64,000 bases of DNA from a plasmid. A program made the translations under genes and the position numbers. The notes beneath the pieces were generated by a model, which did not search any database, was not told the DNA's origin, and saw nothing but the letters and a program-made list of their open reading frames with translations. The DNA lies in sequence record NZ_CP040051.1. One strand, given 5' to 3'. This document shows, piece by piece, positions 42,482-55,753 of this stretch (positions are counted from its first letter, which is position 1; each line of letters opens with the position of its first letter).

Positions 42482-43771
42482 CTAGGCTATAAGGGCATCA
42501 AAGCCTTTTTTGCTGATGAGTCCCTTATTCAATAAATCTTTAGCCTGATTTTCAAAATTTGGTGATGAGTTTTCTGTACCTTGTGGATTGTCATTCATCA
42601 TCTTTCGAATGTATTGGATAACAAGTCCATACCCACCAGCCTGAATAGCCAGATCCAAAAGGTCATTACGAATGGATTTAGAGAAAAAGAGGTGTTCTCG
42701 TACACCTATTAATTTTCCCTCTGGCGTCTCAACGAGGCGCTGAGCAATAAATGCATGTGCTGTAGAGATAGTTTCGGTTAATTTACGATGTTGTTGGTCT
42801 GGTGGAACCAAATCCATGATACGAGGTAGTACGTTTGCAACATCGTTACTATGGATTGTTGACATAACGGGGTGTCCCGTCTTTGAGAGCTCAATTGCAG
42901 CAGAGAAAGATTCTTGGTCACGTAATTCAGCAACTAGTAGTAGTGCTGGTTTACGTCTCATTGCTTCTCTTACAGCTAGGCCAAAAGTCATGAAATGTTC
43001 AGGTATCTGACTTTGAACAATGATTGAATGCTTACTTTTAATACCGTCGTATCTGAATTCGATAGGTTCTTCAAGAGTAATAATATTGCCCTGAATATGT
43101 GTATCTTCTTCATATACGTAACGAACCATTGAAGCTAATGTTGTTGATTTTCCGTGACCAGTTTCACCAACAACATAAGTGATGCCTAGTCTCGGAATGG
43201 CTTTTAGAACGAACTCTTCAGTTAGGCCGATTTGATCATAGGTAGGTGGATCAGATGGAATAATACGTTGAACAATTTGAAAGGAAGAGTTGCCAGTTCT
43301 ATCATTACAGGCACTCACATTACAGCGGAAAATGATTTTCTCTTTTTCCACTGCATTCACATGTAACCAGCTTTCATCATTCTGTGTAGTTATATACCCT
43401 TTACCACTTTTCGAATTGCGATCTTGAAATGCGCTACAGTTATACGCGAAATTTAAACCTTTCCCTTTTTTAATTGAGCTTAGTGCTTCATTACCATTAA
43501 TAATGGTTAAAAACATATTAAGCTCAACATCTTTAAGGTTCTTCAGAGTTAATGCATAAAGCTTATTGTAACGACGAATGAGTATTGGTCTACCGGAGTT
43601 GATCAATACGTCACTCGCGTTAAAAGCATTAGCAACAGTTAAGATTTTACGCACATCTTCTTCAGAATTTATGCTGATGTTATCCAAATCAATTGTTTCA
43701 TGTCGCAACATTTGATAGGGGTGTTCAGCTTTGGGCTCTTCAGCGACGGTATCTCTAGCATAAACATTCAT
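42482..43771 (-). CDS. dotB: VirB11/PilT-superfamily secretion ATPase (DotB/TraJ-like)
   Basis: Walker A 'GETGHGKSTT'. Asp box. His box 'TGHPVMSTIHSN'. Confidence 0.7.
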   Translation of the reverse strand: MNVYARDTVAEEPKAEHPYQMLRHETIDLDNISINSEEDVRKILTVANAFNASDVLINSGRPILIRRYNKLYALTLKNLKDVELNMFLTIINGNEALSSIKKGKGLNFAYNCSAFQDRNSKSGKGYITTQNDESWLHVNAVEKEKIIFRCNVSACNDRTGNSSFQIVQRIIPSDPPTYDQIGLTEEFVLKAIPRLGITYVVGETGHGKSTTLASMVRYVYEEDTHIQGNIITLEEPIEFRYDGIKSKHSIIVQSQIPEHFMTFGLAVREAMRRKPALLLVAELRDQESFSAAIELSKTGHPVMSTIHSNDVANVLPRIMDLVPPDQQHRKLTETISTAHAFIAQRLVETPEGKLIGVREHLFFSKSIRNDLLDLAIQAGGYGLVIQYIRKMMNDNPQGTENSSPNFENQAKDLLNKGLISKKGFDALIA

Positions 43772-43783
43772 AAGCTGTTTCTT

Positions 43784-44602
43784 TTATTGTTGAGTTTCAA
43801 TCGCAACAGGTGTTTCAACCGGATCCTTAACGACTGAACGTTCTTTGATGCTTAAAATTCGGCTATTCCACAATTTAGTGTTGTTCACAAATTGAGGTAA
43901 AGAAGTAATCTCAAAGTTGGTCTGGTTCAACATAAGTGTATTGCCGTTACCAGTAAGGGCGATATCACGACGAGCAATTGCTGGCATCGTAATTTTCCCG
44001 TCCATGACAAAACGATGGAATGCAATCATTCCTTTATATGTTTGGTTGAGACGGTTTAATTGATGCTTGAAAATAGCGTCTGCTTCACGAACACCATCTT
44101 CAATTCCTTTATTCATTGCTTCTTTAAAAGCACGTTCTTCGGCACTATTTTTGGGTTTTAACTCGTTAGGTAAGGCGTCCACACCGATTTCATAGCTCTT
44201 CACATTAAACTGTAAAAAGTCACGCCAGTTTGGTGGGGTATGTGAGAAACGAGCATTTTCTTTAATTTCATAGCGGACGCCAAGCACTGAAAGTGTACGA
44301 GGGTTTTGAACATCACTAATATTGTTTGCCTGAACAATGACAGGGGGAACAACAACAGTATTAATCATTAAACGCTGAAAGTCGTAAATAGAATCAAGCT
44401 TTCGTACATTGTTTGGGTTGTAAACGACTTTATCAATTTCAGTCAGACGAGCACGTAATGCATTTCGTGTAGCTGCTTCATGTACTAGTGTTTTGATTGA
44501 TTCAAGTCGAGCTGAGCTTTCAGCTTGTTTTGCAGAGTCATCTTGAGAAATGATGATTGGTGATTGCTGCAAGTAATATTGGTAATTAGGTAAATCTGCC
44601 AT
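43784..44602 (-). CDS. dotC: DotC/TraI-like T4BSS core protein; lacks an N-terminal lipoprotein signal as annotated
   Basis: 'LDSIYDFQRLMINTVVVPPVIV' and 'HTPPNWRDFL' resemble conserved DotC blocks. Sits between the DotD-like and DotB-like genes. Confidence 0.5.
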   Translation of the reverse strand: MADLPNYQYYLQQSPIIISQDDSAKQAESSARLESIKTLVHEAATRNALRARLTEIDKVVYNPNNVRKLDSIYDFQRLMINTVVVPPVIVQANNISDVQNPRTLSVLGVRYEIKENARFSHTPPNWRDFLQFNVKSYEIGVDALPNELKPKNSAEERAFKEAMNKGIEDGVREADAIFKHQLNRLNQTYKGMIAFHRFVMDGKITMPAIARRDIALTGNGNTLMLNQTNFEITSLPQFVNNTKLWNSRILSIKERSVVKDPVETPVAIETQQ

Positions 44603-44643
44603 AGTCTTAATCCTTATCTTTATTTAAATGACGGTTCATTTGA

Positions 44644-45114
44644 TTAACGATGGATCAATGTGATTGTTTTATCATTTTCATCTACAGCAACAGTTGCAGA
44701 GTTACCAAGTTGTAAGCCAACATCTTTAATGAGATCAAATCCCGTTAATTTGCGTTTGCTAAAGTTTACGATTGGGAGCTGATGAATGTTACCAGCTTCA
44801 ATAAAGCGATATCCGAAGTGATAAGCTGCACTTTGAAGGAGGGTCTGAGGTTCCCCGACATAGTCAACACGAATAACGTCAGTTCTAAAGCTACGTTGAC
44901 GTAAAGCTAAATCTTCGTTAAAGGCTTTTTTATCTAACGCATAAGTTTGTTGTTCAGCTACAGCATCTTGAGCCGCTTGACTCAAAATACCTAAAGGCGA
45001 TTCAACATCAAATTTAGGGCTTGGAACGTAGTAGTAGCTTTGGCATCCAGTCAAAGTGGCAACAGAGATACAAAGGACAGTGAGTGAACGACGAATTGAA
45101 GGTACTATTTTCAT
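44644..45114 (-). CDS. dotD: DotD/TraH-like lipoprotein
   Basis: Lipobox 'LTGC' after the signal peptide. 'AAYHFGYRFIEAG...PIVNF...LIKDVGLQLG' pattern as in the DotD secretin-N0-like domain. Confidence 0.55.
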   Translation of the reverse strand: MKIVPSIRRSLTVLCISVATLTGCQSYYYVPSPKFDVESPLGILSQAAQDAVAEQQTYALDKKAFNEDLALRQRSFRTDVIRVDYVGEPQTLLQSAAYHFGYRFIEAGNIHQLPIVNFSKRKLTGFDLIKDVGLQLGNSATVAVDENDKTITLIHR

Positions 45115-46050
45115 AATTACACCTAGTGTTTGCTATTGTTAGTAGAAGTGCTCAAGGCAGCTTCGGCTTGTAGCAACAAGTATAAATTCTAAATTTTAAA
45201 AAATATATAGTATTAAAAAATAAAAACGCAGAATAAGCGGTCTTGAGTTCATATAAGTTGCGAACTAAAAACGTCATATCAAAAGTTATTGCTAGTTGAG
45301 CTAGTAAGGTTAATTTGTGAACAGTTTCTAATACGAGAAAAGACGAAAATTCTTTAAAAAATCAAAAAAACGATTAATTTGATCTTAAAAGTATGAAATG
45401 TAATGAATAAAAAGAATTTATTTCCAAATAATCTTGAAAACTTGTAGTTAAATTTAAATAAATCTACAAATAAGAAAAACAGATTAAATATTTGGACAAA
45501 AGTCGACAAGTCTAACGTCTAATTAAAATCAAAATAGAAATTTTTATAATGTAAAGCGTAGTATATAACATGGAGAAATTTATAGAATTATTTGATTTTA
45601 TTAATATTATTTTATTATTTTAATGAAAATAACTGATATAAGATATAATTTTTATTCCAATAATATAAGTATGAATAATATTCTATATATTTTATAGAAA
45701 TGAATATTGTTAAAAAATAAAATTTCTTATTTTTTCAATTAAGAAAATAAAGACCATTTAACTTTTTCTATTTATGTAAATAAGATTTAAAAAAATAATT
45801 AACATGTAGCATCACGTGAATGGTTGAAAGTTATATCAAGTTAAATGCTAATGAATGTACTTAGTATCTGCTTAAAAGTGGAATTTAATAAAGTTAAGGA
45901 TGGGTAACGAGCAAGGAGTGTTGCAAACGGTAAGTTTTTAAGCAAAACTGCAATCTGATGAGACATGATCTAGATCGAAGTGAAAGCAGTTGAGCAACAC
46001 TCCGTATCTGATAGGTGTAATAAATTTAAAATTATCGTGGTGTTTGAATT
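45115..46050. other. approximately 930-bp non-coding region with an extremely AT-rich core, about 45180..45900; candidate oriT/oriV or divergent control region
   Basis: No ORF longer than 60 aa. Long A/T runs. Contains a TCACGTGA palindrome and, at its right edge, a structured element (see next feature). Confidence 0.3.
45915..46003 (+). promoter_or_regulatory. 10-bp inverted repeat (GGAGTGTTGC / GCAACACTCC) enclosing a GATCTAGATC palindrome, immediately upstream of the recombinase gene
   Basis: Arms at 45915..45924 and 45994..46003. Perfect palindrome at 45967..45976. Confidence 0.4.
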
Positions 46051-47955
46051 ATGAAGGCTGGCTCGGAATTAGAATTCAATGCAAAAAAATATCCAAAAAG
46101 TATTAAAGGCTTGGAGACACGTGTATTTGATTATTCTGAGAAAACAATAATCAGATATACCAATGTTTGGAAAAAACTTTTAAAACAATATGGGTTAGAA
46201 GATCAAGTTTTGGTAAATCCAGAATATACGCTGGAAACAGTAGTAAATAATCTTATTTCTGAATATGGAAATAATGAATTGCGAAACTCCACTTTTAGAC
46301 ACTATCGATCTGCACTTATTCATCGTATGGGGGTGATCTTGAGTGAACAAAAGAGGGATGGTGAGAAGCTTGTAGCATTGCCTAAGCTGGCAAGACTTTT
46401 TGAAAGTTTGAAAGCAGTTGAGGCGACTGATGATAAAAAACAGCCGAACCGATCTAGCAGTTCGAAGCTCAAGTACTTTCCAAAAGATCTTTATGAATTT
46501 GTGTTAGGCAGCAGTTTTAATTTGAACAGGTCTAATTTGGGGTTGATGTTAAAGCTGTTTATAGAAGCAAATACTATGATTGGATTGAGGCCAGTGGAGT
46601 GGCAAAGCTTAAGGTTGGCATGTGATGTTGAAGAGAGATGCTTATCTCTTGTGGTCGATAATGCAAAAAATACTCAGGGTAGAGCGAACGGCGACATAAG
46701 GATTCTTAATATGATTGAGCCTGATCCAATCAAGCTTAAGAATCAATTAAGGGCAATACTTGGGTTTAAGAGATTGCTCGATTTAGAACTGGAGGCAAGA
46801 GCTAGAAAGTTCTTAACTGAAAGAAGTAGAGAGACTAATGAAACTTATAAAATTTACATCGCAAGTAAAGAGCCAGACAGTTTTGAATTTGAGTTCATTC
46901 ATTGGAAAGGTTCCCAAACCGTTAACTGTATAGAAGCCGTAAACTGTATAAAACCTGAGAATGGAACTGGAGAAACCGTAAACTGGATTTCTACTGAAAA
47001 CGAACTTGAGCAAAATATTGAAGATAGAACAAACGGCGCATTACCTTCCATAAACGGACCAGATACCGTAAACAGAATATCGTCCGGACATGGCCAGAAT
47101 ACGACTGACGGCAATAAAGCTGGCGGTAGTGAATTTAACTATGAGCGAGTGATTGAAGACGGCGCTCATTCTTCCGTAAACGGAATAAATACCGTAGACA
47201 GAATATGGGCCGTAGACGGAATAAATAAAGTTGATGGGAGTGATCACGGCGCATTACCTTCCGCGAACGGACCAGATACCGTAAACGGAATAAAGGCCAT
47301 AGACGGAAATAATACAGTTGATGGAATTAACGCCGTTGCCGGAATAAAGGGGGGTGGGACAAATCAAGCCATTTCTACTGCTTCTACTGCGCCAGCTCCA
47401 GAGTTGACCGACTTCGGATTTAATTCAGTTGCCGGAGAAATACAGCAAACTGGTAGAAATACCGATCACGGAAAAATGGCTGCCTTATTGGGTGCTTATA
47501 ACGCCGTGGTAATTGAAAGTTATGTTGATCGTTATGGCACGATTCAATATGCACTATGTCAAAGTGTGATGGATTCATTGCAACGTAAATTAAAAGATAT
47601 GAGCAATGAATTTTATGAAAAGAAAAAGTTTGGTTTACCTGAAGAGTTAGCTTCAAATAAAGCAAATGCTACGATTTACAGTACACGCCATCAAGCGGTA
47701 GCTAATCGAAAAAAATATAAGTGGAAAGAAGAAGAGGTCGCAGGTTGGTTTGGGCATGCAAGTGTTCAAACGGCGTCAAGACACTATGGTGTGGCTGGTA
47801 AAGGTTGGGGGGATAAACCTATGTTTAGAACTTCGAAATTTAGTCTTGAAAAAGTCAGAATGAGAGAGCAGCAAGTTAATCAAACCAAACAGCTCACGGA
47901 AGAAGATGTATTAAATTCGGTTTTATCTGATAAAGATTTAGATGATCTATTGTAA
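46051..47955 (+). CDS. tyrosine site-specific recombinase (integrase) with an internal repeat insertion
   Basis: C-terminal 'FGHASVQTASRHYG' (LGHxxxxxTxxY catalytic Tyr box). 'STRHQAVANR' (HxxR). 'LRPVEWQSLRL' (box I Arg). Confidence 0.65.
   Translation: MKAGSELEFNAKKYPKSIKGLETRVFDYSEKTIIRYTNVWKKLLKQYGLEDQVLVNPEYTLETVVNNLISEYGNNELRNSTFRHYRSALIHRMGVILSEQKRDGEKLVALPKLARLFESLKAVEATDDKKQPNRSSSSKLKYFPKDLYEFVLGSSFNLNRSNLGLMLKLFIEANTMIGLRPVEWQSLRLACDVEERCLSLVVDNAKNTQGRANGDIRILNMIEPDPIKLKNQLRAILGFKRLLDLELEARARKFLTERSRETNETYKIYIASKEPDSFEFEFIHWKGSQTVNCIEAVNCIKPENGTGETVNWISTENELEQNIEDRTNGALPSINGPDTVNRISSGHGQNTTDGNKAGGSEFNYERVIEDGAHSSVNGINTVDRIWAVDGINKVDGSDHGALPSANGPDTVNGIKAIDGNNTVDGINAVAGIKGGGTNQAISTASTAPAPELTDFGFNSVAGEIQQTGRNTDHGKMAALLGAYNAVVIESYVDRYGTIQYALCQSVMDSLQRKLKDMSNEFYEKKKFGLPEELASNKANATIYSTRHQAVANRKKYKWKEEEVAGWFGHASVQTASRHYGVAGKGWGDKPMFRTSKFSLEKVRMREQQVNQTKQLTEEDVLNSVLSDKDLDDLL
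46915..47352 (+). repeat. in-frame degenerate tandem DNA repeat inside the recombinase gene
   Basis: Repeated 'ccgtaaacgg(a/t)ata' units encode the T/D-V-N/D-G/R-I peptide repeats. Contains a near-identical 42-bp direct repeat at 47031..47072 and 47245..47286. Confidence 0.55.
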
Positions 47956-48038
47956 ATAAAATTGCATTCAGGTATTTTTAAAAATAGATATATCTTTTTT
48001 TAAAAATACGGTGGCTGGTATGCTGTTCGATACAAAAA

Positions 48039-48221
48039 TTGCTTTATTTTGTGGTTTGCTTGGTGGCATTTACAGTGCTATTGCCTACTTTGAATACCTA
48101 TTTTGAAATCCCTAATGTTGAACTATATGAGAGTATGAAAGCGAGACTTTTGCTGGCGGCTATCATCATTGCTGTGATTAGTGGGCCACTCTCATTTTTT
48201 TATTATTTATACGGCGGTTGA
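48039..48221 (+). CDS. small membrane protein (weak)
   Basis: 60-aa ORF with two hydrophobic segments. Confidence 0.25.
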   Translation: MLYFVVCLVAFTVLLPTLNTYFEIPNVELYESMKARLLLAAIIIAVISGPLSFFYYLYGG

Positions 48222-48227
48222 GCAGCA

Positions 48228-48560
48228 ATGAAGATACCTCTAATCATAATTGTGGTTTTATGCACTTTATATTTTTTAAATCTTTCATTGAAATCAAATA
48301 TGAAAGACATTCACAAAAACGAGATCAGCGATAAAGCGTATTTTCGTTTGAGTAGTGAATATAACTACATCAAGGAAAGTCCTGCTGGTGATGAAATGAG
48401 AGCTAAGATCATCAATGGCTTAGTGGATGGGATGATAGATGGTAACGAATATAAATCTATTATTGGAGAAGAGCCTGACTATGATCTTAGTACTGATGCT
48501 GAAAAAGCAACATACAAAGAGGCAAAACAAAAATTTATTGATGAATTTAAACCTTCATAA
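48228..48560 (+). CDS. small N-terminally TM-anchored protein, paralog A
   Basis: N-terminal TM helix. The C-terminal 'YKEAKQKFIDEFK' block is shared with the 48576 ORF. Confidence 0.4.
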   Translation: MKIPLIIIVVLCTLYFLNLSLKSNMKDIHKNEISDKAYFRLSSEYNYIKESPAGDEMRAKIINGLVDGMIDGNEYKSIIGEEPDYDLSTDAEKATYKEAKQKFIDEFKPS

Positions 48561-48575
48561 ATAGAGGCCATATTA

Positions 48576-48902
48576 ATGAAAAAGCTTTTTATAGGGCTTG
48601 TAATAATAGTAATTGCGCTGATCATCGTTACACAATACTTCAAAGCTAGAAGTTACAAAGTTGAAGTTGATGATAAGGGTTACTACATACTCAATGAAAT
48701 GTATGAGCATGTTAAAAATAGTAAGGCTGGAGATGAGCTTGAAATACGGCTTCACACGGCGTTGGATGATGGGATTATCACTCAGGCTGAATATACATAC
48801 CTCACGGACTCTGAATTGCCATCGATGGCAGTTCAAGCCAGTGATAAAGAATATAAAGAAGCCAAGCTAAAAATTTTGAAAGAGTTCAAAAAAGTTTCAT
48901 AA
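48576..48902 (+). CDS. small N-terminally TM-anchored protein, paralog B
   Basis: 'LDDGIITQAEY...YKEAKLKILKEFKK' is parallel to the 48228 ORF. Confidence 0.4.
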   Translation: MKKLFIGLVIIVIALIIVTQYFKARSYKVEVDDKGYYILNEMYEHVKNSKAGDELEIRLHTALDDGIITQAEYTYLTDSELPSMAVQASDKEYKEAKLKILKEFKKVS

Positions 48903-48950
48903 ATGAAAGTTTGTATCTATAGAACAGCTTAGATCCGTTCTCGGACTAAC

Positions 48951-48987
48951 ATACAGTAAACGGTATTAGTGACGGTAACGGATAAAG
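48951..48987 (+). repeat. intergenic repeat unit R1 (ATACAGTAAACGG...ACGGATAAAG family)
   Basis: 'atacagtaaacggtattagtgacggtaacggataaag'; follows a degenerate operator copy at 48893..48910. Confidence 0.5.
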
Positions 48988-49040
48988 TGACTAAGACAAA
49001 TTAATCTTAGACATAACATGATATTTATTGGAGACTTTAA

Positions 49041-49487
49041 ATGATAGAAAACTCACCTATCCCACTAATTGATAAATTAGTAAAAGAAAAAAATTTTGTT
49101 CTTCTAACTTGGGATGCTCGCTATTCCAGTGGGGCATGGGCATGTTGTTTGCCTTATCTTAATCAATGTGAAGTTGTTTATGAGGCTTCTGAAGATGGTG
49201 ATACTCTGATGATCCCTAAAATGGAATATTTACTTAATACTAATTGGCTTCCCATTATGGATGGCTCAAGCGCTATGGATGCCTTAGAAAAGTTAGAGAC
49301 TCGTTTAGCAACATTGCCAACTGATTTTCTTGCTGACAATGATTGGATTAATGCAACTGATGAAGCCATAAATTATTTAAGTAGAATTTCAAAAAAGTAT
49401 GAAGATGATGATGGTGGAATGGATGGAAAACTAAAACCTCTACCTATTGACTACAGAGAGATTAAGTTTCCTCAAGGCTTGTCCTAA
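49041..49487 (+). CDS. hypothetical protein
   Basis: ORF. Confidence 0.35.
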   Translation: MIENSPIPLIDKLVKEKNFVLLTWDARYSSGAWACCLPYLNQCEVVYEASEDGDTLMIPKMEYLLNTNWLPIMDGSSAMDALEKLETRLATLPTDFLADNDWINATDEAINYLSRISKKYEDDDGGMDGKLKPLPIDYREIKFPQGLS

Positions 49488-49488
49488 A

Positions 49489-49524
49489 TCAGTAAACGGT
49501 ATAAACGCCGTGGACGGATAAAGG
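49489..49524 (+). repeat. intergenic repeat unit R2
   Basis: 'atcagtaaacggtataaacgccgtggacggataaag'. Confidence 0.5.
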
Positions 49525-49561
49525 CTCTCCCCAATAGACTTAACTTATATAGGTGGCTTAA

Positions 49562-49864
49562 ATGAAAACAGATGATGTTATTGAACACATCGAAAATCAA
49601 AATGTGACAGCAGTAGAATTACTCGATGAGTTTGATCCGAACTTGCAATTCAAATTCGCAAAAGCAATGACGGCGTTAAAACAGATTATTGATGATGTTC
49701 GGATTCTTTATCCAGATGCCTCTTACTACATTCAAGATGATGCTTTTTATCTAATGCTAGGAGATAGCCATTCTGGTGATCATAAACAGAATGCAAATAC
49801 AAATTTAATTGCATTGACTGATAATCATAAATTGGCAGGGTGTATCTCTGGTGGAGGATTCTAA
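49562..49864 (+). CDS. hypothetical protein
   Basis: ORF. Confidence 0.3.
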   Translation: MKTDDVIEHIENQNVTAVELLDEFDPNLQFKFAKAMTALKQIIDDVRILYPDASYYIQDDAFYLMLGDSHSGDHKQNANTNLIALTDNHKLAGCISGGGF

Positions 49865-50191
49865 ATGAATATGTCAAACGAATATAAACCAATGCTTATC
49901 AAGCACAATAAGTCACAGCCACGTATTAAAAGTATCGAGGACAGGGTATTTCAAGTCTTTGGCATTTTTGCGCTAATTGCTTTTGGGTTAACAACGTGGG
50001 ACCTCTTTGCCGCTGGGGAGCTCTCAGTTCTAAGTTTTAATATGACTTCTGAGGAAATACATCAGTTATCTGAAGCGTTTATGGAAGCGCTCTTTTCCCG
50101 TGTATTTATGTTGGTCATTTTTATTTTCTTCGGTGGTTTTGCTCTACTTAATTTAATCAAACTTATTCAATTGTTTGATTCTGGCAAATAA
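49865..50191 (+). CDS. small membrane protein
   Basis: Two TM helices ('VFGIFALIAFGLTTW', 'VFMLVIFIFFGGFALLNLI'). Confidence 0.3.
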   Translation: MNMSNEYKPMLIKHNKSQPRIKSIEDRVFQVFGIFALIAFGLTTWDLFAAGELSVLSFNMTSEEIHQLSEAFMEALFSRVFMLVIFIFFGGFALLNLIKLIQLFDSGK

Positions 50192-50262
50192 ATTACGGCG
50201 GCGAATTCCGGCCACGTAAAAGTACAGTAATCGGCGTACCAATTTCGACTACGAAAATATTA
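50191..50262 (+). repeat. intergenic repeat unit R3 (two degenerate copies, ending CGAAAATATTAAG)
   Basis: 'attacggcggcgaattccggccacgtaaaagtacagtaatcggcgtaccaatttcgactacgaaaatattaag'. Confidence 0.45.
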
Positions 50263-50269
50263 AGAGGAT

Positions 50270-50641
50270 TTGAAAATGTTTAAAAGTGAACATGTGGTGA
50301 AAGAGCAAGATTTAGATAAGCTAATTAAAGAAAATCCCTATACTCAAAAAATAGTCCAGCATTTGAAAGATTTTGAAAACATTGAAATAGGGATTGTCTT
50401 ATTTATGGGTTTACCAGTTGCTGACCACGATTCCATAAATAAGCTACATCTTAAGTTGCATGGATATATTGAATGTTTATTGGAAAATGAGATGTGTACG
50501 CAATCACAGTGCAATCTATTGAAAGCGTCATTAGATGAAATTCATTTTAACAAGGTAAAGCCACGTTCATCTTCAACACATTCAAACGACGTGTATATTA
50601 CGGATGAAGATGTGCGCCGTTCAGGTGAACTTGGTTTTTAA
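50270..50641 (+). CDS. hypothetical protein
   Basis: ORF with RBS 'agaggatttgaaa'. Confidence 0.35.
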   Translation: MKMFKSEHVVKEQDLDKLIKENPYTQKIVQHLKDFENIEIGIVLFMGLPVADHDSINKLHLKLHGYIECLLENEMCTQSQCNLLKASLDEIHFNKVKPRSSSTHSNDVYITDEDVRRSGELGF

Positions 50642-50648
50642 AGACATC

Positions 50649-50805
50649 ATACAGCGTAACCAATTCCGGCTACGGAAAAATACAGTAAACGGGCTTGGGT
50701 CCGGACACGGCGAATATTAAGTTTTCAGTTATGACAGATGAAAGGACTAATTCCGGAAGCGGAGGAATACAGTAAACGGAAATAGGTCCGTACACGGAAA
50801 CACAG
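50649..50805 (+). repeat. intergenic repeat cluster R4 (three units)
   Basis: 'atacagcgtaaccaattccggctacggaaaaa', 'atacagtaaacgggcttgggtccggacacggcgaatattaag', 'atacagtaaacggaaataggtccgtacacggaaacacag'. Confidence 0.5.
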
Positions 50806-50834
50806 CTTCAAACGCCGTGATAATTTAAAAATAG

Positions 50835-50858
50835 ACCAGCTTTAAAGCTGGTTTTTTT
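50835..50858 (+). terminator. rho-independent terminator at the end of the small-gene array
   Basis: ACCAGC-TTTAAA-GCTGGT stem-loop followed by TTTTTT. Confidence 0.55.
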
Positions 50859-51010
50859 GTGCAAGCTATTTATAATTAGAAACTATAAATTTTTTAAAAC
50901 TAAAAAGTTTTCTGAAATATTTTTATTTTCTTAGGTAATTTTAAAAAAAAGATATTGCATATTTTTAAAAATACTAAGACAATAGCCACTATAAGCAACT
51001 GACACTAGAT

Positions 51011-51352
51011 GTGCAGTTTAATTCAAGCTCGTGCCTTAATAATGACGAGATGAGAACTATGAAAGAGTCACAACAACAAGACATTGAACTGTCTTCTTCT
51101 TCAGATGAATACAGTACGTGGGGGAATCCTCGCAATTCTCTGAATGTAGATGTTAGAACTAAAGAGTTCTATTCAAATCTGCTTACGCGCATTATCAACT
51201 TCAAGATTATTGTTCTTGTTGCTTTGACATTAGTTGTACTTGCACAAGTTGCCTATATCGCTGTTAAAAGAAATTTTGAACAGCTTGTTTTTGATGATGG
51301 TTCAAGTACTCCTTGTATTTATAACCCTCTAACTAAAACCTTTCGGCAATAA
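51011..51352 (+). CDS. small single-TM protein, IcmM/DotJ-like by position
   Basis: One TM ('IIVLVALTLVVLAQVAYIAV'). First gene of the plus-strand T4BSS block. The start is likely an internal Met. Confidence 0.3.
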   Translation: MQFNSSSCLNNDEMRTMKESQQQDIELSSSSDEYSTWGNPRNSLNVDVRTKEFYSNLLTRIINFKIIVLVALTLVVLAQVAYIAVKRNFEQLVFDDGSSTPCIYNPLTKTFRQ

Positions 51353-51369
51353 TAAGCAAGGAATAGGTA

Positions 51370-52086
51370 ATGTCTGAACAAAAGCAGAATCAGAACCCGA
51401 AAACTAAACCTCGTTTTCCAACTACACCAGAACAGGTTAATAGTGGGTTGGTCGAAATGGCCAAAAAGAATGATGAACTTGAAGACAAGATTAAAAGTCA
51501 ACGTCGTCAATTATTAGGCTGCATTATCGGTATTGGTGTGTTGGGTACAGCAGTTGCAGTACTTGGTGGCATTATTGGATTGATGCCAAAAGTCGAATAC
51601 TTTCAGACCGTCAATAATGAAGTAATTTGTAAAATCAATCCGAATGACAATCCTGCATTTACTGACGTAAATGTTGCTGAATTTGCTTCGGAAGGTTTGC
51701 TAAATGCCTATTCACTTGATTATCAAAATGCTGACGCTGATATCAATAACACTTTACGCCGTTACTTCACAGATCGTGGGCGTGAAAGCTTCATTACTAC
51801 ACTACGTCAATCAGGTTTGATTGACCAAATCCGTAACAATTTCTTAGTCCTTAGAACTTCTAAGCTGCAAACACCTGAAGTCGCTAAAAATAATGGCATT
51901 GATAGTCGTGGCAATCGATTCTGGATTGTTATGCAACCAGTTCGCATGGACTACTTCAACGGTAAATCTCAACCGGCTGATACTCGACAATATATGGCTG
52001 AAATTCGTGTTGAAGTTACGCCACGTGATGTCTATAACCCGAAAGGTTTAGGTATCGCCAGTATCGTTTTACGTGCAAAAAATTAA
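51370..52086 (+). CDS. icmL: bitopic inner-membrane protein, IcmL/DotI-like
   Basis: Single TM ('LLGCIIGIGVLGTAVAVLGGIIGL') followed by an approximately 170-aa periplasmic domain. Position is upstream of the icmK-like gene. Confidence 0.45.
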   Translation: MSEQKQNQNPKTKPRFPTTPEQVNSGLVEMAKKNDELEDKIKSQRRQLLGCIIGIGVLGTAVAVLGGIIGLMPKVEYFQTVNNEVICKINPNDNPAFTDVNVAEFASEGLLNAYSLDYQNADADINNTLRRYFTDRGRESFITTLRQSGLIDQIRNNFLVLRTSKLQTPEVAKNNGIDSRGNRFWIVMQPVRMDYFNGKSQPADTRQYMAEIRVEVTPRDVYNPKGLGIASIVLRAKN

Positions 52087-52103: not shown

Positions 52104-53234
52104 ATGCAGCTAAAGTTTAAAAATCTTGCACTGAGTATGGCGCTAGTCGTTGCTGGTAGTTCTTATGCTGAACCAAGCCAACAACAATCAGGCCAGCAAC
52201 AGCAAGCTACGGCGCAGCAAACTGTGCCTTCTTCTCAACCACAGGGTAATAACCAATCTCAAGGGAATAACCAGCAACAAGGTCAACAGCAAGCCAATAA
52301 TCAACAGGCTCAAGCTGAAGCGCCTTCGTATATTGGAACACCTCCACCAAATACGATTAATTTAGGTAATGTTCAAACTTTTGGTAATTCGTTCCCACCA
52401 CCAGTACGTGTAGCGAAAACTAAAGATGAGATTGTTGCTGAAATTTTAAGTATGGAACTTACCCCGCAACAGGTTAAAAACATCAAGGATCTGCTCTTAC
52501 GTCAAGAGCGGGATGCTTCTACACCATATACGACAACGGCGCGACCAATTGTACGCTCTGTTCCAATTGATTTGAGCCCAGCAGCTCAACCGCCAGTCTT
52601 ACGGCTTTCTATGGGCATGTTAACCAGTATTGTTTTTAGCGATCTGAGTGGTAATCCGTGGGAAATTGAAAAAGTTACGTTCAACAAAGAACTGTTTGCA
52701 GACGACAGACCAGAACAAGGGCAGGGTCAAGGTGAAAAATCTGATATTTCATCTAAAAACACGAACATATTTTCAATTGAACCTCTTACCGCTACCGCTT
52801 ACGGAAACGTGACAGTACGTTTAAAAGGTTTATCAACACCAGTAATTTTCATTTTAGCCACTGGTCAAAATGAAGTGGATATGCGTATTGATGCGCGACT
52901 AGCTGGGCGTAGTCCAACATCTGTCAACTCTTCGTTACGCGCAAATATGAATGCCACTGGCGTTATGTCGAGTATTGATAGCCAGACACTACTATTTCTA
53001 GATGGTACGCCTCCAGTAGAAGCAGAACGCATTAGAACTTCAGATACAAGTGTTGAAGCTTGGAATTTTAACGGTCAATACATTGTTCGTAGTAACGATA
53101 CAGTGCTTTACCCAAGTTATAAATCAACAGCACGTTCAACAGGCGGCACAAGTATTTATGTCTATCCGGATCCTATTAATCAGGTAACGATTAGTAGAAA
53201 CGGACAACCGACTACAGTGTATTTTAATAATTAA
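52104..53234 (+). CDS. icmK: outer-membrane core component, IcmK/DotH-like (VirB9-like)
   Basis: Signal peptide, Q-rich linker, beta-rich C-terminal domain. 376 aa, against roughly 360 aa for DotH. Syntenic position. Confidence 0.5.
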   Translation: MQLKFKNLALSMALVVAGSSYAEPSQQQSGQQQQATAQQTVPSSQPQGNNQSQGNNQQQGQQQANNQQAQAEAPSYIGTPPPNTINLGNVQTFGNSFPPPVRVAKTKDEIVAEILSMELTPQQVKNIKDLLLRQERDASTPYTTTARPIVRSVPIDLSPAAQPPVLRLSMGMLTSIVFSDLSGNPWEIEKVTFNKELFADDRPEQGQGQGEKSDISSKNTNIFSIEPLTATAYGNVTVRLKGLSTPVIFILATGQNEVDMRIDARLAGRSPTSVNSSLRANMNATGVMSSIDSQTLLFLDGTPPVEAERIRTSDTSVEAWNFNGQYIVRSNDTVLYPSYKSTARSTGGTSIYVYPDPINQVTISRNGQPTTVYFNN

Positions 53235-53242
53235 GGTGTGCT

Positions 53243-54874
53243 ATGAGTGCTGAAAATAATACAAATAAACCAGATGACATCCAGTCTTCGCAAGAGCAAT
53301 TCACTGGTCAAAATGAAGCGACTCACTCGACTCATAATTCCGATCCTGAACGCAGGGATCCATTGACGCCTGAATATGAGACGTTTGAAGAAAATCAGAC
53401 AGCAACTTGGATACCAAGAAATGATGCAGATAATCGCATCAATATGAAATTTGGTGATAAGTTCAAGCTCTACTGGCGTGAAAACGGTGTGTTCCGTTTT
53501 ATCATCATAACTGTTGGTGCAGTAATTCTTCTTATCCTATTTTTCCTCATGAAGTTCATCTTCAGACAGGATGCGCCGGAACAAATTAATCCGGCAAATA
53601 TTAAGATGGATGCTCCGCAAAGCAATACTAAGCAAGCGGAATATGTATCACAAGAGCAATATACAGCTATACGTAAACAAGAAGAAATTCTTGCAAGACA
53701 GGCGGCGGCTAAAGGCGAAAGCTATACACCACGTAATCTTGTTATTGCTCCAACAGATGCTCAAGGTCAAGTGGTATTACCTTCAACATCTAATGCTCAA
53801 TACGGCGCTATGAACCCGCAACAAGCTGGTTTAATGAATAGTACTGGCCAATTAACTTATGCAAATCCAGCAGTGGCAGGACAACAAGGTCAGATGCAAC
53901 AGCAGGGAATGCAGCAAGGCCAACCGCAACCTCAATACATACCAGTTCAAACACAAGATTACGTAAGTGATGTTGCTGCGAATTATGAGCAAAATAACAA
54001 TCAATTTGCGAACTGGTTTGATGAAGAAAGTCAACGCCAAATCACTGCAAATAAAGAGCAAGAACAAACAATTAACAGTTTTGTTCTTAAACAGATTGGT
54101 CAGATCACGGGTGCTGAGTTTGACGCTAACGGAAATATGATTCCGAAGAGCAAAGACAAAAAAACTAAAGCCGGTTCATACGCACAAAAAACCTATTACA
54201 CGGCGCCAGCAAGCGCAGACAATTCCGGAAACGGAAGTAATACAGGTAACAGTGCAAACAATGCTCAGGATGCTTCGCCGTTTTCCGCTAACGGAAATAA
54301 TCCAGTAAACGGTAAAAAGTCCGGAACCGGAAAAGTGTTGATTCCAGCCGGAACTCGTTCAATTGCTCGTTTATTGGGTGAAGTGAATACAGATGACGGC
54401 AACCAAGTCTTTGCACAAGTTACCAATGGCCCATTAAAAGGCCGCAAAGTGTTTGGAACAGTTTCTAAGTCAAATGACAATATTCAATTCAAAATTGATC
54501 GTGTCTTGAGTGATGGTAAGAACAAAGAATTTTCTATCGACGCCGTGGGTCAAACGTTGCAAGGCTCATATGGAATGGCGACATATATCAAACGCCATAC
54601 TTTACAGCGTTATGGTGCATTAATCGCAAGTGGTATTGCACAAGGTTACGGTCAGGCATATAGCCAAGCTTATGGCCAACAAACTTATACAAGTGGTGCA
54701 ACAGTGATTGAGACTAAGGATCCATCTGGTGAGCGTATTGCCGGAAACATCATTGGTCAAGTTGGCCAAAATGCAAGTCAGGAAATTCAGCAAATCGGGC
54801 GTAAACAAGTGACATATATCACTCCAGTCGGCACCGTTTTCTACATTTTCTTTAACCAAGATGTGACTGAATAA
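53243..54874 (+). CDS. icmE: IcmE/DotG-like (TraO/VirB10-like) core complex protein
   Basis: Cytoplasmic N-terminus, TM ('FRFIIITVGAVILLILFFLMKFIF'), Pro/Gln-rich spacer, C-terminal VirB10-like beta domain ('VLIPAGTRSIARLLGEVNTDDGNQVFAQV'). Confidence 0.5.
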   Translation: MSAENNTNKPDDIQSSQEQFTGQNEATHSTHNSDPERRDPLTPEYETFEENQTATWIPRNDADNRINMKFGDKFKLYWRENGVFRFIIITVGAVILLILFFLMKFIFRQDAPEQINPANIKMDAPQSNTKQAEYVSQEQYTAIRKQEEILARQAAAKGESYTPRNLVIAPTDAQGQVVLPSTSNAQYGAMNPQQAGLMNSTGQLTYANPAVAGQQGQMQQQGMQQGQPQPQYIPVQTQDYVSDVAANYEQNNNQFANWFDEESQRQITANKEQEQTINSFVLKQIGQITGAEFDANGNMIPKSKDKKTKAGSYAQKTYYTAPASADNSGNGSNTGNSANNAQDASPFSANGNNPVNGKKSGTGKVLIPAGTRSIARLLGEVNTDDGNQVFAQVTNGPLKGRKVFGTVSKSNDNIQFKIDRVLSDGKNKEFSIDAVGQTLQGSYGMATYIKRHTLQRYGALIASGIAQGYGQAYSQAYGQQTYTSGATVIETKDPSGERIAGNIIGQVGQNASQEIQQIGRKQVTYITPVGTVFYIFFNQDVTE

Positions 54875-54883
54875 CAATCGAAT

Positions 54884-55753
54884 TTGGAGAAATTAAAAAT
54901 GTCAAACGAACCACAACAACCTAATTATGATGACGATTTTGACTATCAGACACAGGCACAACAACCAGTTGATTCGACTGATAGACGTAATAAGTTCATT
55001 TTAATTGGCGCAGTTATCTTCGCTATTTGTGTTCTTACGTTCATGTTTATTTCAACAAAAATGAAAAAAGCACCACCGAAAGATCAAACTATTGAAGCTC
55101 CAGCTCCAGATCAAACGGCATATCAACCACCGCCACAACCAGTGCAAATGCAGCCACAACAACCGGTTGGATATTCGCAAAATTCAATGGTGGCCGTGCC
55201 AGAAACGATGCCAAAGTCTACTGATCCAGTGAACGGTACAGTGATGGTTAAAGATATGACTGGTAAAGACGTTGATGCTTATTCCGTGGACGGACAAAAC
55301 GCCATTATTCAATTCAACAATGCTAATGGTTTACAGCCGATCCCATTGAATATGCCAGCTCCAGTAGCGCCAAATATCAATAATCAGGCGAATAATTTTA
55401 ATGAGCAACGTGTGATTACGTTAGAGCAAGAAAATTCACAGCTCAAGGCTCAAAACAATTCACTACGTACATTGGCCCAAGATCAGCAACTTAAAATTGG
55501 ACAGTATCAAGCATTGATTAAAAATGCACGCGCAAACAACGGCGCAAATATTGTGCAATTACGTGAAACTAAAAAAGGTGTTGCTTTGAATAAAGCATTA
55601 CCACGTGGACAAGAAGTAGTAGCGACTGTAGGCAATCGTGTTTGGTTATCTGACGGTAAGCAATATAACTCATATGGAGTAGGCCAACGTCTACCAACGG
55701 GTTATCGCGTTCTTGATGTAAATGAAATGGCTGGCGAAGCTTCATTTAAGTAA
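54884..55753 (+). CDS. icmG: IcmG/DotF-like bitopic protein
   Basis: TM ('FILIGAVIFAICVLTFMFI'), Pro/Gln-rich region, coiled-coil 'QENSQLKAQNNSLRTLAQDQQLKIGQYQAL'. Position follows icmE. Confidence 0.45.
   Translation: MEKLKMSNEPQQPNYDDDFDYQTQAQQPVDSTDRRNKFILIGAVIFAICVLTFMFISTKMKKAPPKDQTIEAPAPDQTAYQPPPQPVQMQPQQPVGYSQNSMVAVPETMPKSTDPVNGTVMVKDMTGKDVDAYSVDGQNAIIQFNNANGLQPIPLNMPAPVAPNINNQANNFNEQRVITLEQENSQLKAQNNSLRTLAQDQQLKIGQYQALIKNARANNGANIVQLRETKKGVALNKALPRGQEVVATVGNRVWLSDGKQYNSYGVGQRLPTGYRVLDVNEMAGEASFK

Follow-up and report, generated by a model that had tools for sequence, protein, structure and literature searches.

Integrons, with their arrays of small genes behind a tyrosine recombinase, carry attC sites that are imperfect hairpins of 57–141 nt; the array described here lies in a 64,000-nt stretch of plasmid DNA (NZ_CP040051.1; hereafter the window, to which positions refer, + strand unless stated otherwise) and contains non-folding runs of a 10-bp palindrome instead. 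As in an integron, its small genes are co-directional and look promoterless, its variable blocks each end in a repeat, some repeats overlap gene 3' ends, a gene with a predicted tyrosine-recombinase fold adjoins the array, and a given block may be present, missing or exchanged in related elements, with breaks mostly at the repeats. Unlike an integron integrase, the recombinase-like gene is co-directional with the array, belongs to a very divergent other clade and is a conserved member of the traM/dotI conjugation operon; the repeats also occur within genes and at a distant locus, several blocks hold two or three genes instead of one, and crossover points vary. The first-pass annotation, which had set this locus apart from integrons for its co-directional recombinase and for repeats unlike attC R''/R' cores, is borne out by the missing attC-like hairpin, and the integron was rejected. 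The pdif (XerC/XerD) modules occur in the same host genus, and there too short repeated sites bound gene modules that differ between plasmids; the sites considered here are direct, not alternating, and unrelated in sequence, and a search with the 11-6-11 consensus (TCGYATAA-N6-TTATGTTAAWT, up to 3 mismatches) returned 0 sites in the window, so that pdif modules were rejected as well. The IncI shufflon (Rci, sfx) also has a tyrosine recombinase encoded beside MPF-I transfer genes, which acts on multiple short repeats, yet its repeats are inverted and 19 bp long and its segments are alternative pilV ends, whereas the array repeats here are all direct and on the coding (+) strand, and the ORFs are complete and without PilV similarity; this candidate was dismissed too. 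A tblastn search with the N-terminal domain of the recombinase-like protein had no IncI plasmids among its matches.

The window represents a large, resistance-carrying conjugative plasmid of Acinetobacter, of the pAB04-1/pA297-3 type and with a Dot/Icm-like (MPF-I) transfer system. The array begins downstream of the 634-aa recombinase-like gene (46051..47955) with an AT-rich, promoter/operator-like perfect palindrome, GTATTTTTAAAAATAGATA/TATCTTTTTTTAAAAATAC (47972..48009, no strand assigned); lineages B and D have copies of it at corresponding positions. A second copy of the AT-rich element (50936..50983, no strand assigned), 48 bp long and 94% conserved in the distant lineage B, precedes the orfX-dotI operon. 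The small membrane protein gene orfX (51011..51352), the conserved partner directly upstream of dotI/traM, has kept this synteny in relatives, with 50% identity between the window and lineage-B proteins; it is the marker for the end of the inserted array, and the only array protein counted as common to lineages A and B.

The 634-aa protein had no match in Pfam or NCBIfam, profile searches of PDB sequences found nothing, and its relatives reached the Pfam Phage_integrase model below threshold only (16–19 bits against a cut-off of 27.1). Its designation as a recombinase in the first-pass annotation is supported by the predicted structure of a relative and by the alignment of catalytic residues, according to which it belongs to a divergent family with a tyrosine-recombinase fold and conserved catalytic residues. 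The AF2 model of the short relative P0015 (E = 2.4e-63 to the profile of alignment A1) reached a pLDDT of 89.3, and its top 50 PDB matches in Foldseek were all tyrosine recombinases (probability 0.91–1.00), with IntI (2a3v) just 48th; the 634-aa protein itself was modelled poorly (pLDDT 42.8). In alignment A1, R180, K206, R546-H547, H569 and Y579 are invariant, as are R, K, YxxRH, H and Y in alignment A2, which comprises 64 sequences of diverse relatives; the first catalytic His is replaced by Tyr (YSTRH). Among the 1202 relatives collected by profile search, most are 300–480 aa long; the N- and C-terminal parts of the 634-aa protein are conserved, and its hypervariable, repeat-bearing centre differs in length among homologues (518–686 aa). 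The family is associated with Dot/Icm-like (T4BSS) transfer gene clusters, usually as the first gene of the traM/dotI operon. It is conserved in many MPF-I elements without array or repeats and is thus not array-specific; the small-gene array is restricted to those Acinetobacter lineages that have the repeats.

Divergent proteins of tyrosine-recombinase fold that are encoded among or next to conjugation genes, close to repeat-rich DNA, are also found in SGI1 (MpsA), pCW3 (TcpM) and pIGRK (MobK), and tyrosine-recombinase-like relaxases of this kind are reported to exist (PMC6414798; PMC8152469). The likeness is one of fold and gene setting, in a host plasmid family without an identified relaxase: in pA297-3-type (PTU-Pse9) plasmids and III-4a megaplasmids the relaxase, oriT and rep are reported as unidentified, yet the plasmids are conjugative (PMC8490738; bioRxiv 10.1101/2024.01.30.577996; PMC7885321), and both groups carry the recombinase-like gene beside traH. 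An explanation inferred throughout, and in our judgement improbable, would make the protein a relaxase or relaxosome component and the units its binding sites at or near oriT; transfer that began at one site and stopped at a different one would then add or remove blocks. The precedent of these relaxases and the embedding of the family in the T4BSS gene cluster are consistent with such a role; a unit-rich element at another place on the plasmid, bounded by inverted repeats and with seven small co-directional genes behind it, resembles an origin, and a Shewanella array that holds a homologue of one array gene (148 aa, see below) also has an antirestriction gene. Against it, and unlike the MpsA, TcpM and MobK cases, relatives of the gene coexist with ordinary MOBP relaxases in Xanthomonas and also in some Pseudomonas (PMC10488154), and neither a nick site nor an oriT motif was found.

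The intervals in which repeats had previously been marked (48951–48987, 49489–49524, 50191–50262 and 50649–50805) all contain members of one family. The form given for them proved right as to the family; the unit is actually a symmetric 10-bp palindrome, CCG-N4-CGG (extended form TTCCG-N4-CGGAA), spaced at 17–18 bp, plus a separate motif, CACGGCG, that starts repeat runs and whose inverse often ends them, and the sequence CGAAAATATTAAG, in which several repeats were said to end, has just two occurrences, both approximate. With up to 1 mismatch allowed, the core ACMGTAAACGG has 11 copies in the window, where 0.79 would be expected, and 10 of the 11 lie within 46919–50779; perfect CCG-N4-CGG palindromes number 18 in the window, 13 of them within 46900–50830, an interval for which 200 block shuffles yielded 0.155 on average and never more than 2. 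Information content is mirror-symmetric across the unit (C4/G13, 1.88/1.88; C5/G12, 1.04/0.99; G6/C11, 1.49/1.66 bits), and variants such as CAG...CGG lack a compensating change on the opposite side; this combination fits recognition by a dimer and not a base-paired stem.

When all five repeat modules were folded as RNA and as DNA on both strands, z-scores ran from 0.0 to -2.8 and DNA energies from -4.5 to -10.8 kcal/mol. The hairpin of module R1 is weak and imperfect (-9.1 kcal/mol; z -1.9 on one strand and -2.8 on the other), and the remaining modules are no more stably folded than shuffled sequences (z 0.0 to -2.6). That the units act as folded single strands or RNA, either as attC-like hairpins or as mRNA processing or regulatory structures between genes, is very improbable: the R1 hairpin and the placement of all array copies on the coding strand are compatible with it, but paired positions are conserved without covariation, the units occur in both orientations at the second locus, and a search against Rfam found no family. 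What the units share with iteron, centromere (parC/parS) and operator arrays is that they are phased, position-specifically conserved copies of a short symmetric site, gathered in one or two plasmid places; as in iteron and operator arrays and in RepA_N origins, some sites lie in coding sequence and position is kept while sequence drifts. Unlike iteron and operator arrays, the field has no linked cognate binding protein, rep or par gene, is interleaved with variable genes, and changes its period from 18 bp in the recombinase-like gene and 17–18 bp in the array to 21 bp at the second locus.

The distribution of the units is highly restricted. Within the recombinase-like gene, an in-frame field (46916..47476) contains about 15 units of 18 bp with the consensus ATACCGTAAACGGAATAA, which translates as T-V-N-G-I-N, organised in modules of about 87 bp that each start with ACGGCGC. 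A module in the same reading frame, with a CACGGCG box and four units (54199..54337), lies within the DotG/VirB10 homologue (53243–54874), and lineage-B plasmids (L013 among others) have units at the same DotG site; two more in-frame units (55224..55300) are found in a 289-aa gene downstream of dotG. The second locus is the single-copy, inverted-repeat-bounded element mentioned above. The repeats are thus not confined to cassette ends, and the rest of the backbone (about 150 kb of the plasmid) has no copies. On the low-GC backbone of pAB04-1, 23/23 perfect palindromes are confined to three places; on a 98-kb lineage-B plasmid, 11/11 perfect palindromes fall within 64.5–71.4 kb and 24/24 copies of the CACGGCG/ACGGCG box within 63–72.4 kb. 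The cluster positions (recombinase-like gene, array, DotG and inverted-repeat-bounded element) recur in a lineage that is only about 50% identical, the repeat element is conserved in four lineages, and lineage D has long runs of units both immediately downstream of the recombinase-like gene and in front of the traM promoter element.

In-frame copies of one repeat in unrelated genes, translated as a tolerated peptide, together with intergenic copies, recall the Rickettsia palindromic elements (RPE); an RPE, however, is one element of 100–150 bp, whereas the repeats here are 18-bp units that are not dispersed, have no stable palindromic fold and keep their positions between lineages. The MITE/RPE-like element proposed in the first-pass annotation thus survives in respect of the in-frame copies only; a mobile repeat was rejected for the lack of a stable fold and of dispersal over the two plasmids scanned, since the units keep to three places on the 169-kb plasmid and to the equivalent ones on the 98-kb relative. 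It is also improbable that the units are functionless short repeats whose local proliferation (through slippage, gene conversion or an RPE/MITE-like mechanism) is tolerated in frame in disordered loops alone and produces deletions and duplications as a by-product. The copies in three genes always use the frame that avoids TAA and encode N/G/V/T-rich linker peptides, copy number inside the gene varies, and the tandem 87-bp higher-order structure would agree with local proliferation; the persistence of cluster positions and of the symmetric core across lineages down to about 50% protein identity argues against it, as do the absence of copies on the other 150 kb or so and the lack of terminal repeats, target duplications or a hairpin in individual clusters.

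Within the array, the 60-aa TTG ORF annotated earlier at 48039 is probably no gene; two hydrophobic mini-ORFs of 28 aa suit the comparison with plasmid pD4 better, the first (48020..48106) lying inside 119 bp (48015–48133) that are missing from pD4/pA297-3-type plasmids, the second (48135..48221) conserved in pD4. They are followed by a 110-aa protein with an N-terminal hydrophobic anchor (48228..48560), which has no family match and shares 44% identity with the 126-aa first array gene of the lineage-B plasmid L024, and by its 108-aa, likewise N-terminally anchored paralogue (48576..48902); the paralogy already proposed for this pair is supported by 38% identity over 81 aa (E = 1.6e-13). The palindrome TTTCATAAATGAAA behind the second gene recurs after its counterpart in lineages B and D. 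Module R1 (48934..48990, three units) precedes a variable block, the 148-aa gene (49041..49487), that is missing from pD4/pA297-3/pAB3-type plasmids, where one hybrid R1/R2 repeat is left; plasmids of Shewanella, Pseudomonas and Bacillus carry homologues within long arrays of small genes. Module R2 (49487..49530), two units and an inverted CGCCGTG box, begins in the stop codon of this gene. The next block (49562..50191; 98.4% identity to pD4) consists of two genes without a repeat between them, encoding a 100-aa protein that matches phrog_27273 (function unknown) and a 108-aa protein with predicted membrane segments. After module R3 (50192..50262; an ACGGCG box, two units and a copy of the R4a start), a variable slot holds a 123-aa gene (50270..50641), with distant homologues (34–37%) elsewhere on lineage-B plasmids, and in pD4-type plasmids an unrelated 63-aa ORF. 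Modules R4a and R4b (50651..50825) lie 87 bp apart with a 14-codon remnant ORF (50731–50775) between them and are closed by the inverted box AACGCCGTG at 50811–50819; identity to pD4 rises to 99.65% from 50651 on. The terminator expected at the array end was found at 50833..50858, an intrinsic-terminator-like hairpin with a 9-bp stem plus a T run. Of the gene junctions, just four carry repeats.

Detailed comparison of two lineages (about 50% protein identity), covering about a dozen array configurations, agrees with the cassette-like layout noted at first: relatives gain, lose or replace single small genes, with most breakpoints in or at repeats. The accompanying suggestion of repeat-mediated shuffling finds no counterpart, as no reordering was seen among these configurations. 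Identity to pD4 differs among the module-bounded blocks (92.4%, 98.4% and 99.65%), and one and the same DNA box, in a different reading frame each time, forms the end of two unrelated genes, so that the joint is defined at the DNA level. The "empty" relatives L035 and L037 retain about 250 bp of unbroken units where others hold one to three genes; the repeat field therefore appears to be primary, and the genes inserted into it. The direct repeats that flank inserted blocks measure 34–38 nt, are 79–84% identical and have 13–17 bp of exact match; being diverged and short in exact match, they would make a poor RecA-dependent substrate, which leaves room for an enzyme-driven process.

A dedicated cassette system, a functional integron analogue with unrelated sites and an unrelated enzyme clade, would have the recombinase-like protein act site-specifically on two-unit modules, inserting and excising cassettes; we consider this unlikely. 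Repeats and array occur only where the recombinase-like gene carries the repeat insert, and the predicted recombinase fold and the catalytic R, K, R-H, H and Y, invariant across the 64 diverse family members, would fit such a system. The flanking repeats of three independent blocks differ by 16–21%, as expected under such a system if a cassette-borne site met a resident site; hybrid or reduced single repeats remain at empty sites, the same slot is filled by unrelated genes, and the 18-bp period keeps unit-to-unit events within the gene in frame. Tyrosine-recombinase core sites, however, have a spacer of 6–8 bp, whereas the units here are 10-bp palindromes with a 4-bp centre, and the gene is conserved in operons of many elements that lack repeats or arrays. 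Crossovers fall at varying positions, at least one junction has the look of a microhomology-mediated event (a 4–5-bp microhomology deletion), the indel at 48015–48133 involves no repeat, neither the DotG units nor those of the distant element form cassette ends, and the missing reordering also speaks against cassettes.

What is directly observed is the motif, found in few places and conserved in four lineages, and the breakpoints at the repeats. The reading that we favour, tentatively and with somewhat less than even confidence, is that of a conserved field of protein-binding repeats which is also prone to recombination and so serves small accessory genes as a landing pad. As a caveat, a binding field alone accounts neither for the units behind nearly every variable gene nor for so many units inside a coding region; sites within genes are familiar from parS sites inside genes and from origins inside RepA_N rep genes. 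A symmetric (dimeric) DNA-binding protein probably binds the units, the adjacent recombinase-like protein would be the obvious candidate for this role, and the field would resemble an iteron or operator array. The ground state between the recombinase-like gene and the traM/dotI promoter in this Acinetobacter plasmid group would be an unbroken unit run; by recombination between units, whether enzyme-catalysed or incidental, small accessory genes would be inserted, lost and replaced, and for this reason the variable blocks would each end in a repeat and the locus would look like a cassette array.

The four repeat locations that the first-pass annotation had noticed among the small genes at 48039-50858 all proved to be members of one family. 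Its 11-mer core occurs 11 times in the window against 0.79 expected, with 10 of the 11 copies within 46919-50779; a position weight matrix from 22 units gives the consensus ATACCGTAAACGGAATAA, with information content distributed mirror-symmetrically at C4/G13, C5/G12 and G6/C11. The unit is therefore a palindrome of 10 bp, CCG-N4-CGG, flanked by AT-rich shoulders (TTCCG-N4-CGGAA). The window has 18 perfect palindromes: 13 in 46900-50830 (0.155 expected; at most 2 in 200 shuffles), four in 54190-55300 and one at 52795, with none in the remaining ~55 kb scanned. Runs of units, here called modules (R1 to R4 in the array), start with a second motif, the (C)ACGGCG box, and frequently end with its inverse. 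The densest field is found inside the recombinase-like gene (46051..47955, plus strand), at 46916-47476, where units with an 18-bp period lie in frame, encode T-V-N-G-I-N-like hexapeptides, and are grouped in ~87-bp modules that begin with ACGGCGC. The DotG homolog carries one further in-frame module, in the same reading frame as in the recombinase-like gene, and the gene after it two more units; outside this recombinase-array-DotG region, the only cluster on the whole plasmid is a ~430-bp intergenic element beyond the window. Purely selfish or neutral proliferation of the repeats would fit the in-frame copies, but it does not explain the conserved cluster positions, and we consider it quite improbable.

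Several known repeat systems were rejected. The modules form no defined hairpin (RNA z -0.1 to -1.55; DNA, both strands, z 0.0 to -2.8 and only -4.5 to -10.8 kcal/mol), and an Rfam search matched no family; the folds of all modules on both strands, together with Rfam, speak against an integron with attC hairpins and against an RNA structure. The window contains no match to the XerC/D-type consensus site, which excludes pdif modules; a shufflon, in which repeats are inverted, is excluded by the direct orientation of the array repeats and the absence of pilV. A CsrA sponge based on ACGGA motifs was dropped, since the cluster outside the window has units in both orientations and no CsrA-like gene was observed, and a ParM/ParR centromere does not agree with relatives that have ParM and lack the repeats.

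The window and its relatives pAB04-1, pD4, pA297-3 and pAB3 belong to the MPF-I (Dot/Icm-like) class of conjugative plasmids. DotD, DotC and DotB are encoded upstream of the locus on the minus strand, and DotI, DotH and DotG downstream on the plus strand; the DotG homolog is intact in the window (53243-54874, 543 aa), whereas in the pAB04-1 record (43369-45000) a TAA stands in place of the CAA of the window and splits the gene, so that the window represents a near relative of pAB04-1 and not that record itself. Over 45500-51500, pAB04-1 (NZ_CP012007.1, 169 kb) and seven further large Acinetobacter plasmids share 99.9% identity with the window, and pD4, pA297-3 and pAB3 match it at ~95%, in pieces. 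Among about a dozen array configurations compared, the proposed cassette-like gain, loss and replacement of genes at the repeats held for the most part in lineages A (the window type) and B (the pAC1633-1 type), except that crossover positions vary and no reordering of blocks was found. Within lineage A, pD4 is without the 148-aa gene and retains in its place one hybrid repeat, in which the left portion comes from R1 and the right portion from R2; where the window has the 123-aa gene, pD4 carries an unrelated 63-aa ORF, with breakpoints at the ACGGCG box that follows the previous stop codon and where R4a starts. Identity between window and pD4 differs by module-bounded block, from 94.4% for the recombinase-like gene and 92.4% for the anchored pair (the 110-aa and 108-aa genes at 48228 and 48576) to 98.4% for the block of the 100-aa and 108-aa genes and 99.65% beyond the last module; this unequal divergence suggests that the blocks have had separate histories. 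An indel at 48015-48133 has no repeat at its breakpoints.

In lineage B, one slot between units holds either an 88-aa gene or an unrelated 93-aa gene, an additional 85-aa gene reads through a CACGGCGCA box, a 190-bp insert is located between 38-nt direct repeats, and a 126-aa gene, whose right breakpoint coincides with the box, replaces two other genes. Two unrelated genes end, in different reading frames, in the box GCACGGCGCAAAA(A)TAA, so that it is the DNA sequence of the joint that is conserved. The lineage-B 126-aa gene shares 44% identity with the 110-aa gene of the window, so that one gene family is represented in both arrays. Such exchanges could come from a site-specific cassette system that is dedicated to them and operated by the recombinase-like protein, but the varying crossover positions, the lack of any observed reordering, one empty-site junction that represents a 4-5-bp microhomology deletion, and several blocks that carry two or three genes speak against it; we regard such a system as unlikely.

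Two relatives in the lineage-B comparison (loci L035 and L037) have no variable genes at all; ~250 bp of uninterrupted units extend between a conserved gene trio and the traM promoter element. In lineage D, long unit runs enclosed by CACGGCG...CGCCGTG occur immediately downstream of the recombinase-like gene, between blocks of genes, and ahead of the promoter element. Together, the uninterrupted field and the lineage-D runs suggest that the repeat field came first and that the genes were inserted into it. Lineage C (L014/L027, a contig of Acinetobacter sp. Marseille-Q1618) has no small-gene array downstream of the recombinase-like gene; the region contains IS elements, MazE/PIN and Gp49/HTH toxin-antitoxin pairs, an isochorismatase and a permease, and the site is thus also a hotspot for larger insertions. 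The symmetric and conserved unit, its strict localization, the recurring cluster positions and the uninterrupted field in the empty relatives are all consistent with a functional array of protein-binding sites, similar to iterons or operators. We tentatively lean toward this reading, at somewhat less than even confidence: the units would be bound by a protein in a field ahead of the traM operon, and small accessory genes would enter this field and be exchanged within it. A binder encoded in the array was set aside, since orfX and the anchored-protein family are the only array proteins common to lineages A and B among those compared. The recombinase-like protein is the natural candidate for the predicted binder, because the densest field lies in its own gene and the repeats co-occur with the insert-bearing form of the protein.

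The small proteins received no assignment in Pfam or NCBIfam, and a PHROGs search produced one match, to a PHROG of unknown function; homologs of the 148-aa protein occur in long small-gene arrays on other plasmids, including a Shewanella plasmid whose array also contains an antirestriction gene (ArdR) and the Pseudomonas plasmid Rms163, where the array lies downstream of a site-specific integrase. The terminator that had been seen to close the array (50835..50858) is present, and the paralogy of the anchored pair was borne out; the supposed 60-aa ORF with a TTG start at 48039 is more plausibly a pair of hydrophobic ORFs of 28 aa each, the first inside a 119-bp stretch absent from pD4. A 14-codon ORF, MTDERTNSGSGGIQ* (50731-50775, between R4a and R4b), starts after a copy of the ATATTAAG motif, which is also found ahead of the ribosome-binding site of the 123-aa gene, and extends into the next module; it resembles what would be left of a deleted gene block. 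AT-rich palindromes with the core TATTTTTAAAAATA stand on either side of the array (47972-48009 and 50936-50983) and recur at ~6508 of the pAB04-1 record; plasmids whose genes share only ~50-60% identity conserve the downstream element at 94% over 48 bp, and this element is probably the promoter/operator of the tra operons. Another conserved palindrome, TTTCAT(T/A)AATGAAA, is located behind the stop codon of an early gene of the array in lineages A, B and D, even where the upstream gene differs (window 48900-48917; compared loci L005 4952-4967, L024 5543-5560 and L031 3863-3878). Arrays of lineages B and D contain a second repeat family, two to four tandem ~60-bp units with a small hairpin (TTCTAAGCCACCTGTGCGGTGGTGAAC, or ...CTACCTATACGGTAGTGAAC), whose copy number differs among plasmids (L005 6365-6449; L024 6253-6463; L031 4375-4520).

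The 634-aa recombinase-like protein was assigned to no family in Pfam or NCBIfam. Its close homologs are only 12, all from Acinetobacter, and keep the N- and C-terminal parts around a repeat center of varying length (518-686 aa); a profile search of 1.8 billion representative proteins recovered 1202 relatives, mainly of 300-480 aa, most of which match in two stretches that skip the repeat insert. Phage_integrase matches were sub-threshold and limited to a few relatives; profile searches with the family against PDB sequences found no match, and hhalign against the canonical integrase of the plasmid was uninformative. Since the repeat insert and the shallow alignment gave a poor structure model of the 634-aa protein (pLDDT 42.8), a short relative was modeled in its place; the top 50 PDB hits of this confident model (pLDDT 89.3) were all tyrosine recombinases (Tn1549 Int, XerA, lambda Int, Cre, XerH, IntI). 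These matches and the residues R, K, Y-x-x-R-H, H and Y, invariant in 64 diverse relatives, place the protein, as judged from the model, in a real but very divergent tyrosine-recombinase clade with conserved catalytic residues. The clade (window 46051-47955 and loci L015, L016, L017, L022 and L023) is large, unannotated, and found in MPF-I conjugative elements of several genera. The genomic position is conserved, immediately divergent from dotD/traH; metagenomic contigs show the order int-like, small orf, dotI, dotH, dotG, with the int-like gene first, and the gene has the same position in Pseudomonas and Xanthomonas plasmids and in Acinetobacter III-4a megaplasmids. These latter relatives are short (323-428 aa) and without a small-gene array, and no units were present in the three plasmid loci scanned (L015-L017); array and repeats are therefore a specialization of a few Acinetobacter lineages (A to D). 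Genome and metagenome scans for further loci yielded only 4 and 3, respectively.

Plasmids of the PTU-Pse9 type are conjugative according to the literature, with rep gene, relaxase and oriT reported as unidentified (PMC7885321; PMC8490738; bioRxiv 10.1101/2024.01.30.577996). The ~430-bp element outside the window (pAB04-1 record 149516-149945; L009 49516-49945) contains units in both orientations, three of them with 21-bp phasing, arranged around a promoter-like AT-rich core; it is bordered by 18-bp inverted repeats (AAAATAGCCTAAGCA.AT / AT.TGCTTAGGCTATTTT) and followed by seven co-directional small genes. One copy each was found in pAB04-1, in a 98-kb lineage-B plasmid (NZ_CP101117.1 22360-22617, L019) and in the lineage-C locus (L014 16745-17312), all with CCG-N4-CGG units and CACGGCG boxes; the element has the look of an origin (oriT or oriV?), in a family of plasmids without known origins. 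GC skew was dropped as a pointer to a replication origin: most 3-kb bins of pAB04-1 (L007-L010) show positive skew for one and the same strand, with no leading/lagging switch, and its near-monotonic cumulative rise around the 169-kb plasmid makes it uninformative. The bin with the repeat field has the strongest skew of pAB04-1 (0.21). A relaxase/oriT function of the recombinase-like protein and the units seems quite improbable; it is weakened by relatives that combine the gene with a MOBP relaxase, in Xanthomonas and, according to the literature, in some Pseudomonas (PMC10488154). The broader proposal, that a catalytically intact-looking recombinase in MPF-I operons acts on the modules in PTU-Pse9-type plasmids as a new cassette recombinase or relaxase/relaxosome protein, with the inverted-repeat element as origin-like site and the array as a recombinase-fed accessory, possibly leading or anti-defense, region, is in our estimate distinctly doubtful.

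The papers searched and read do not describe the repeats, the array or the recombinase-like family; those on these plasmids list only tra genes around the recombinase-like gene (PMC7885321; PMC8490738). The locus combines two known kinds of structure, repeat-bounded gene modules and binding-site arrays, and offers candidates that can be tested: a well-defined cis-element confined to three places on the plasmid, a hotspot for the exchange of small accessory genes, and a conserved recombinase-fold protein inside a transfer operon. If the units are targets of the recombinase-like protein, they would belong either to a cassette-exchange mechanism or to a relaxase/oriT type that is new; if they are no more than operator-like sites of an ordinary kind, they would exemplify binding-site fields that are written into coding sequence and serve as gene landing pads. 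The plasmid families concerned (pA297-3, pAB3, pAB04-1 and pAC1633-1) spread multidrug resistance, carbapenemases included, in Acinetobacter.
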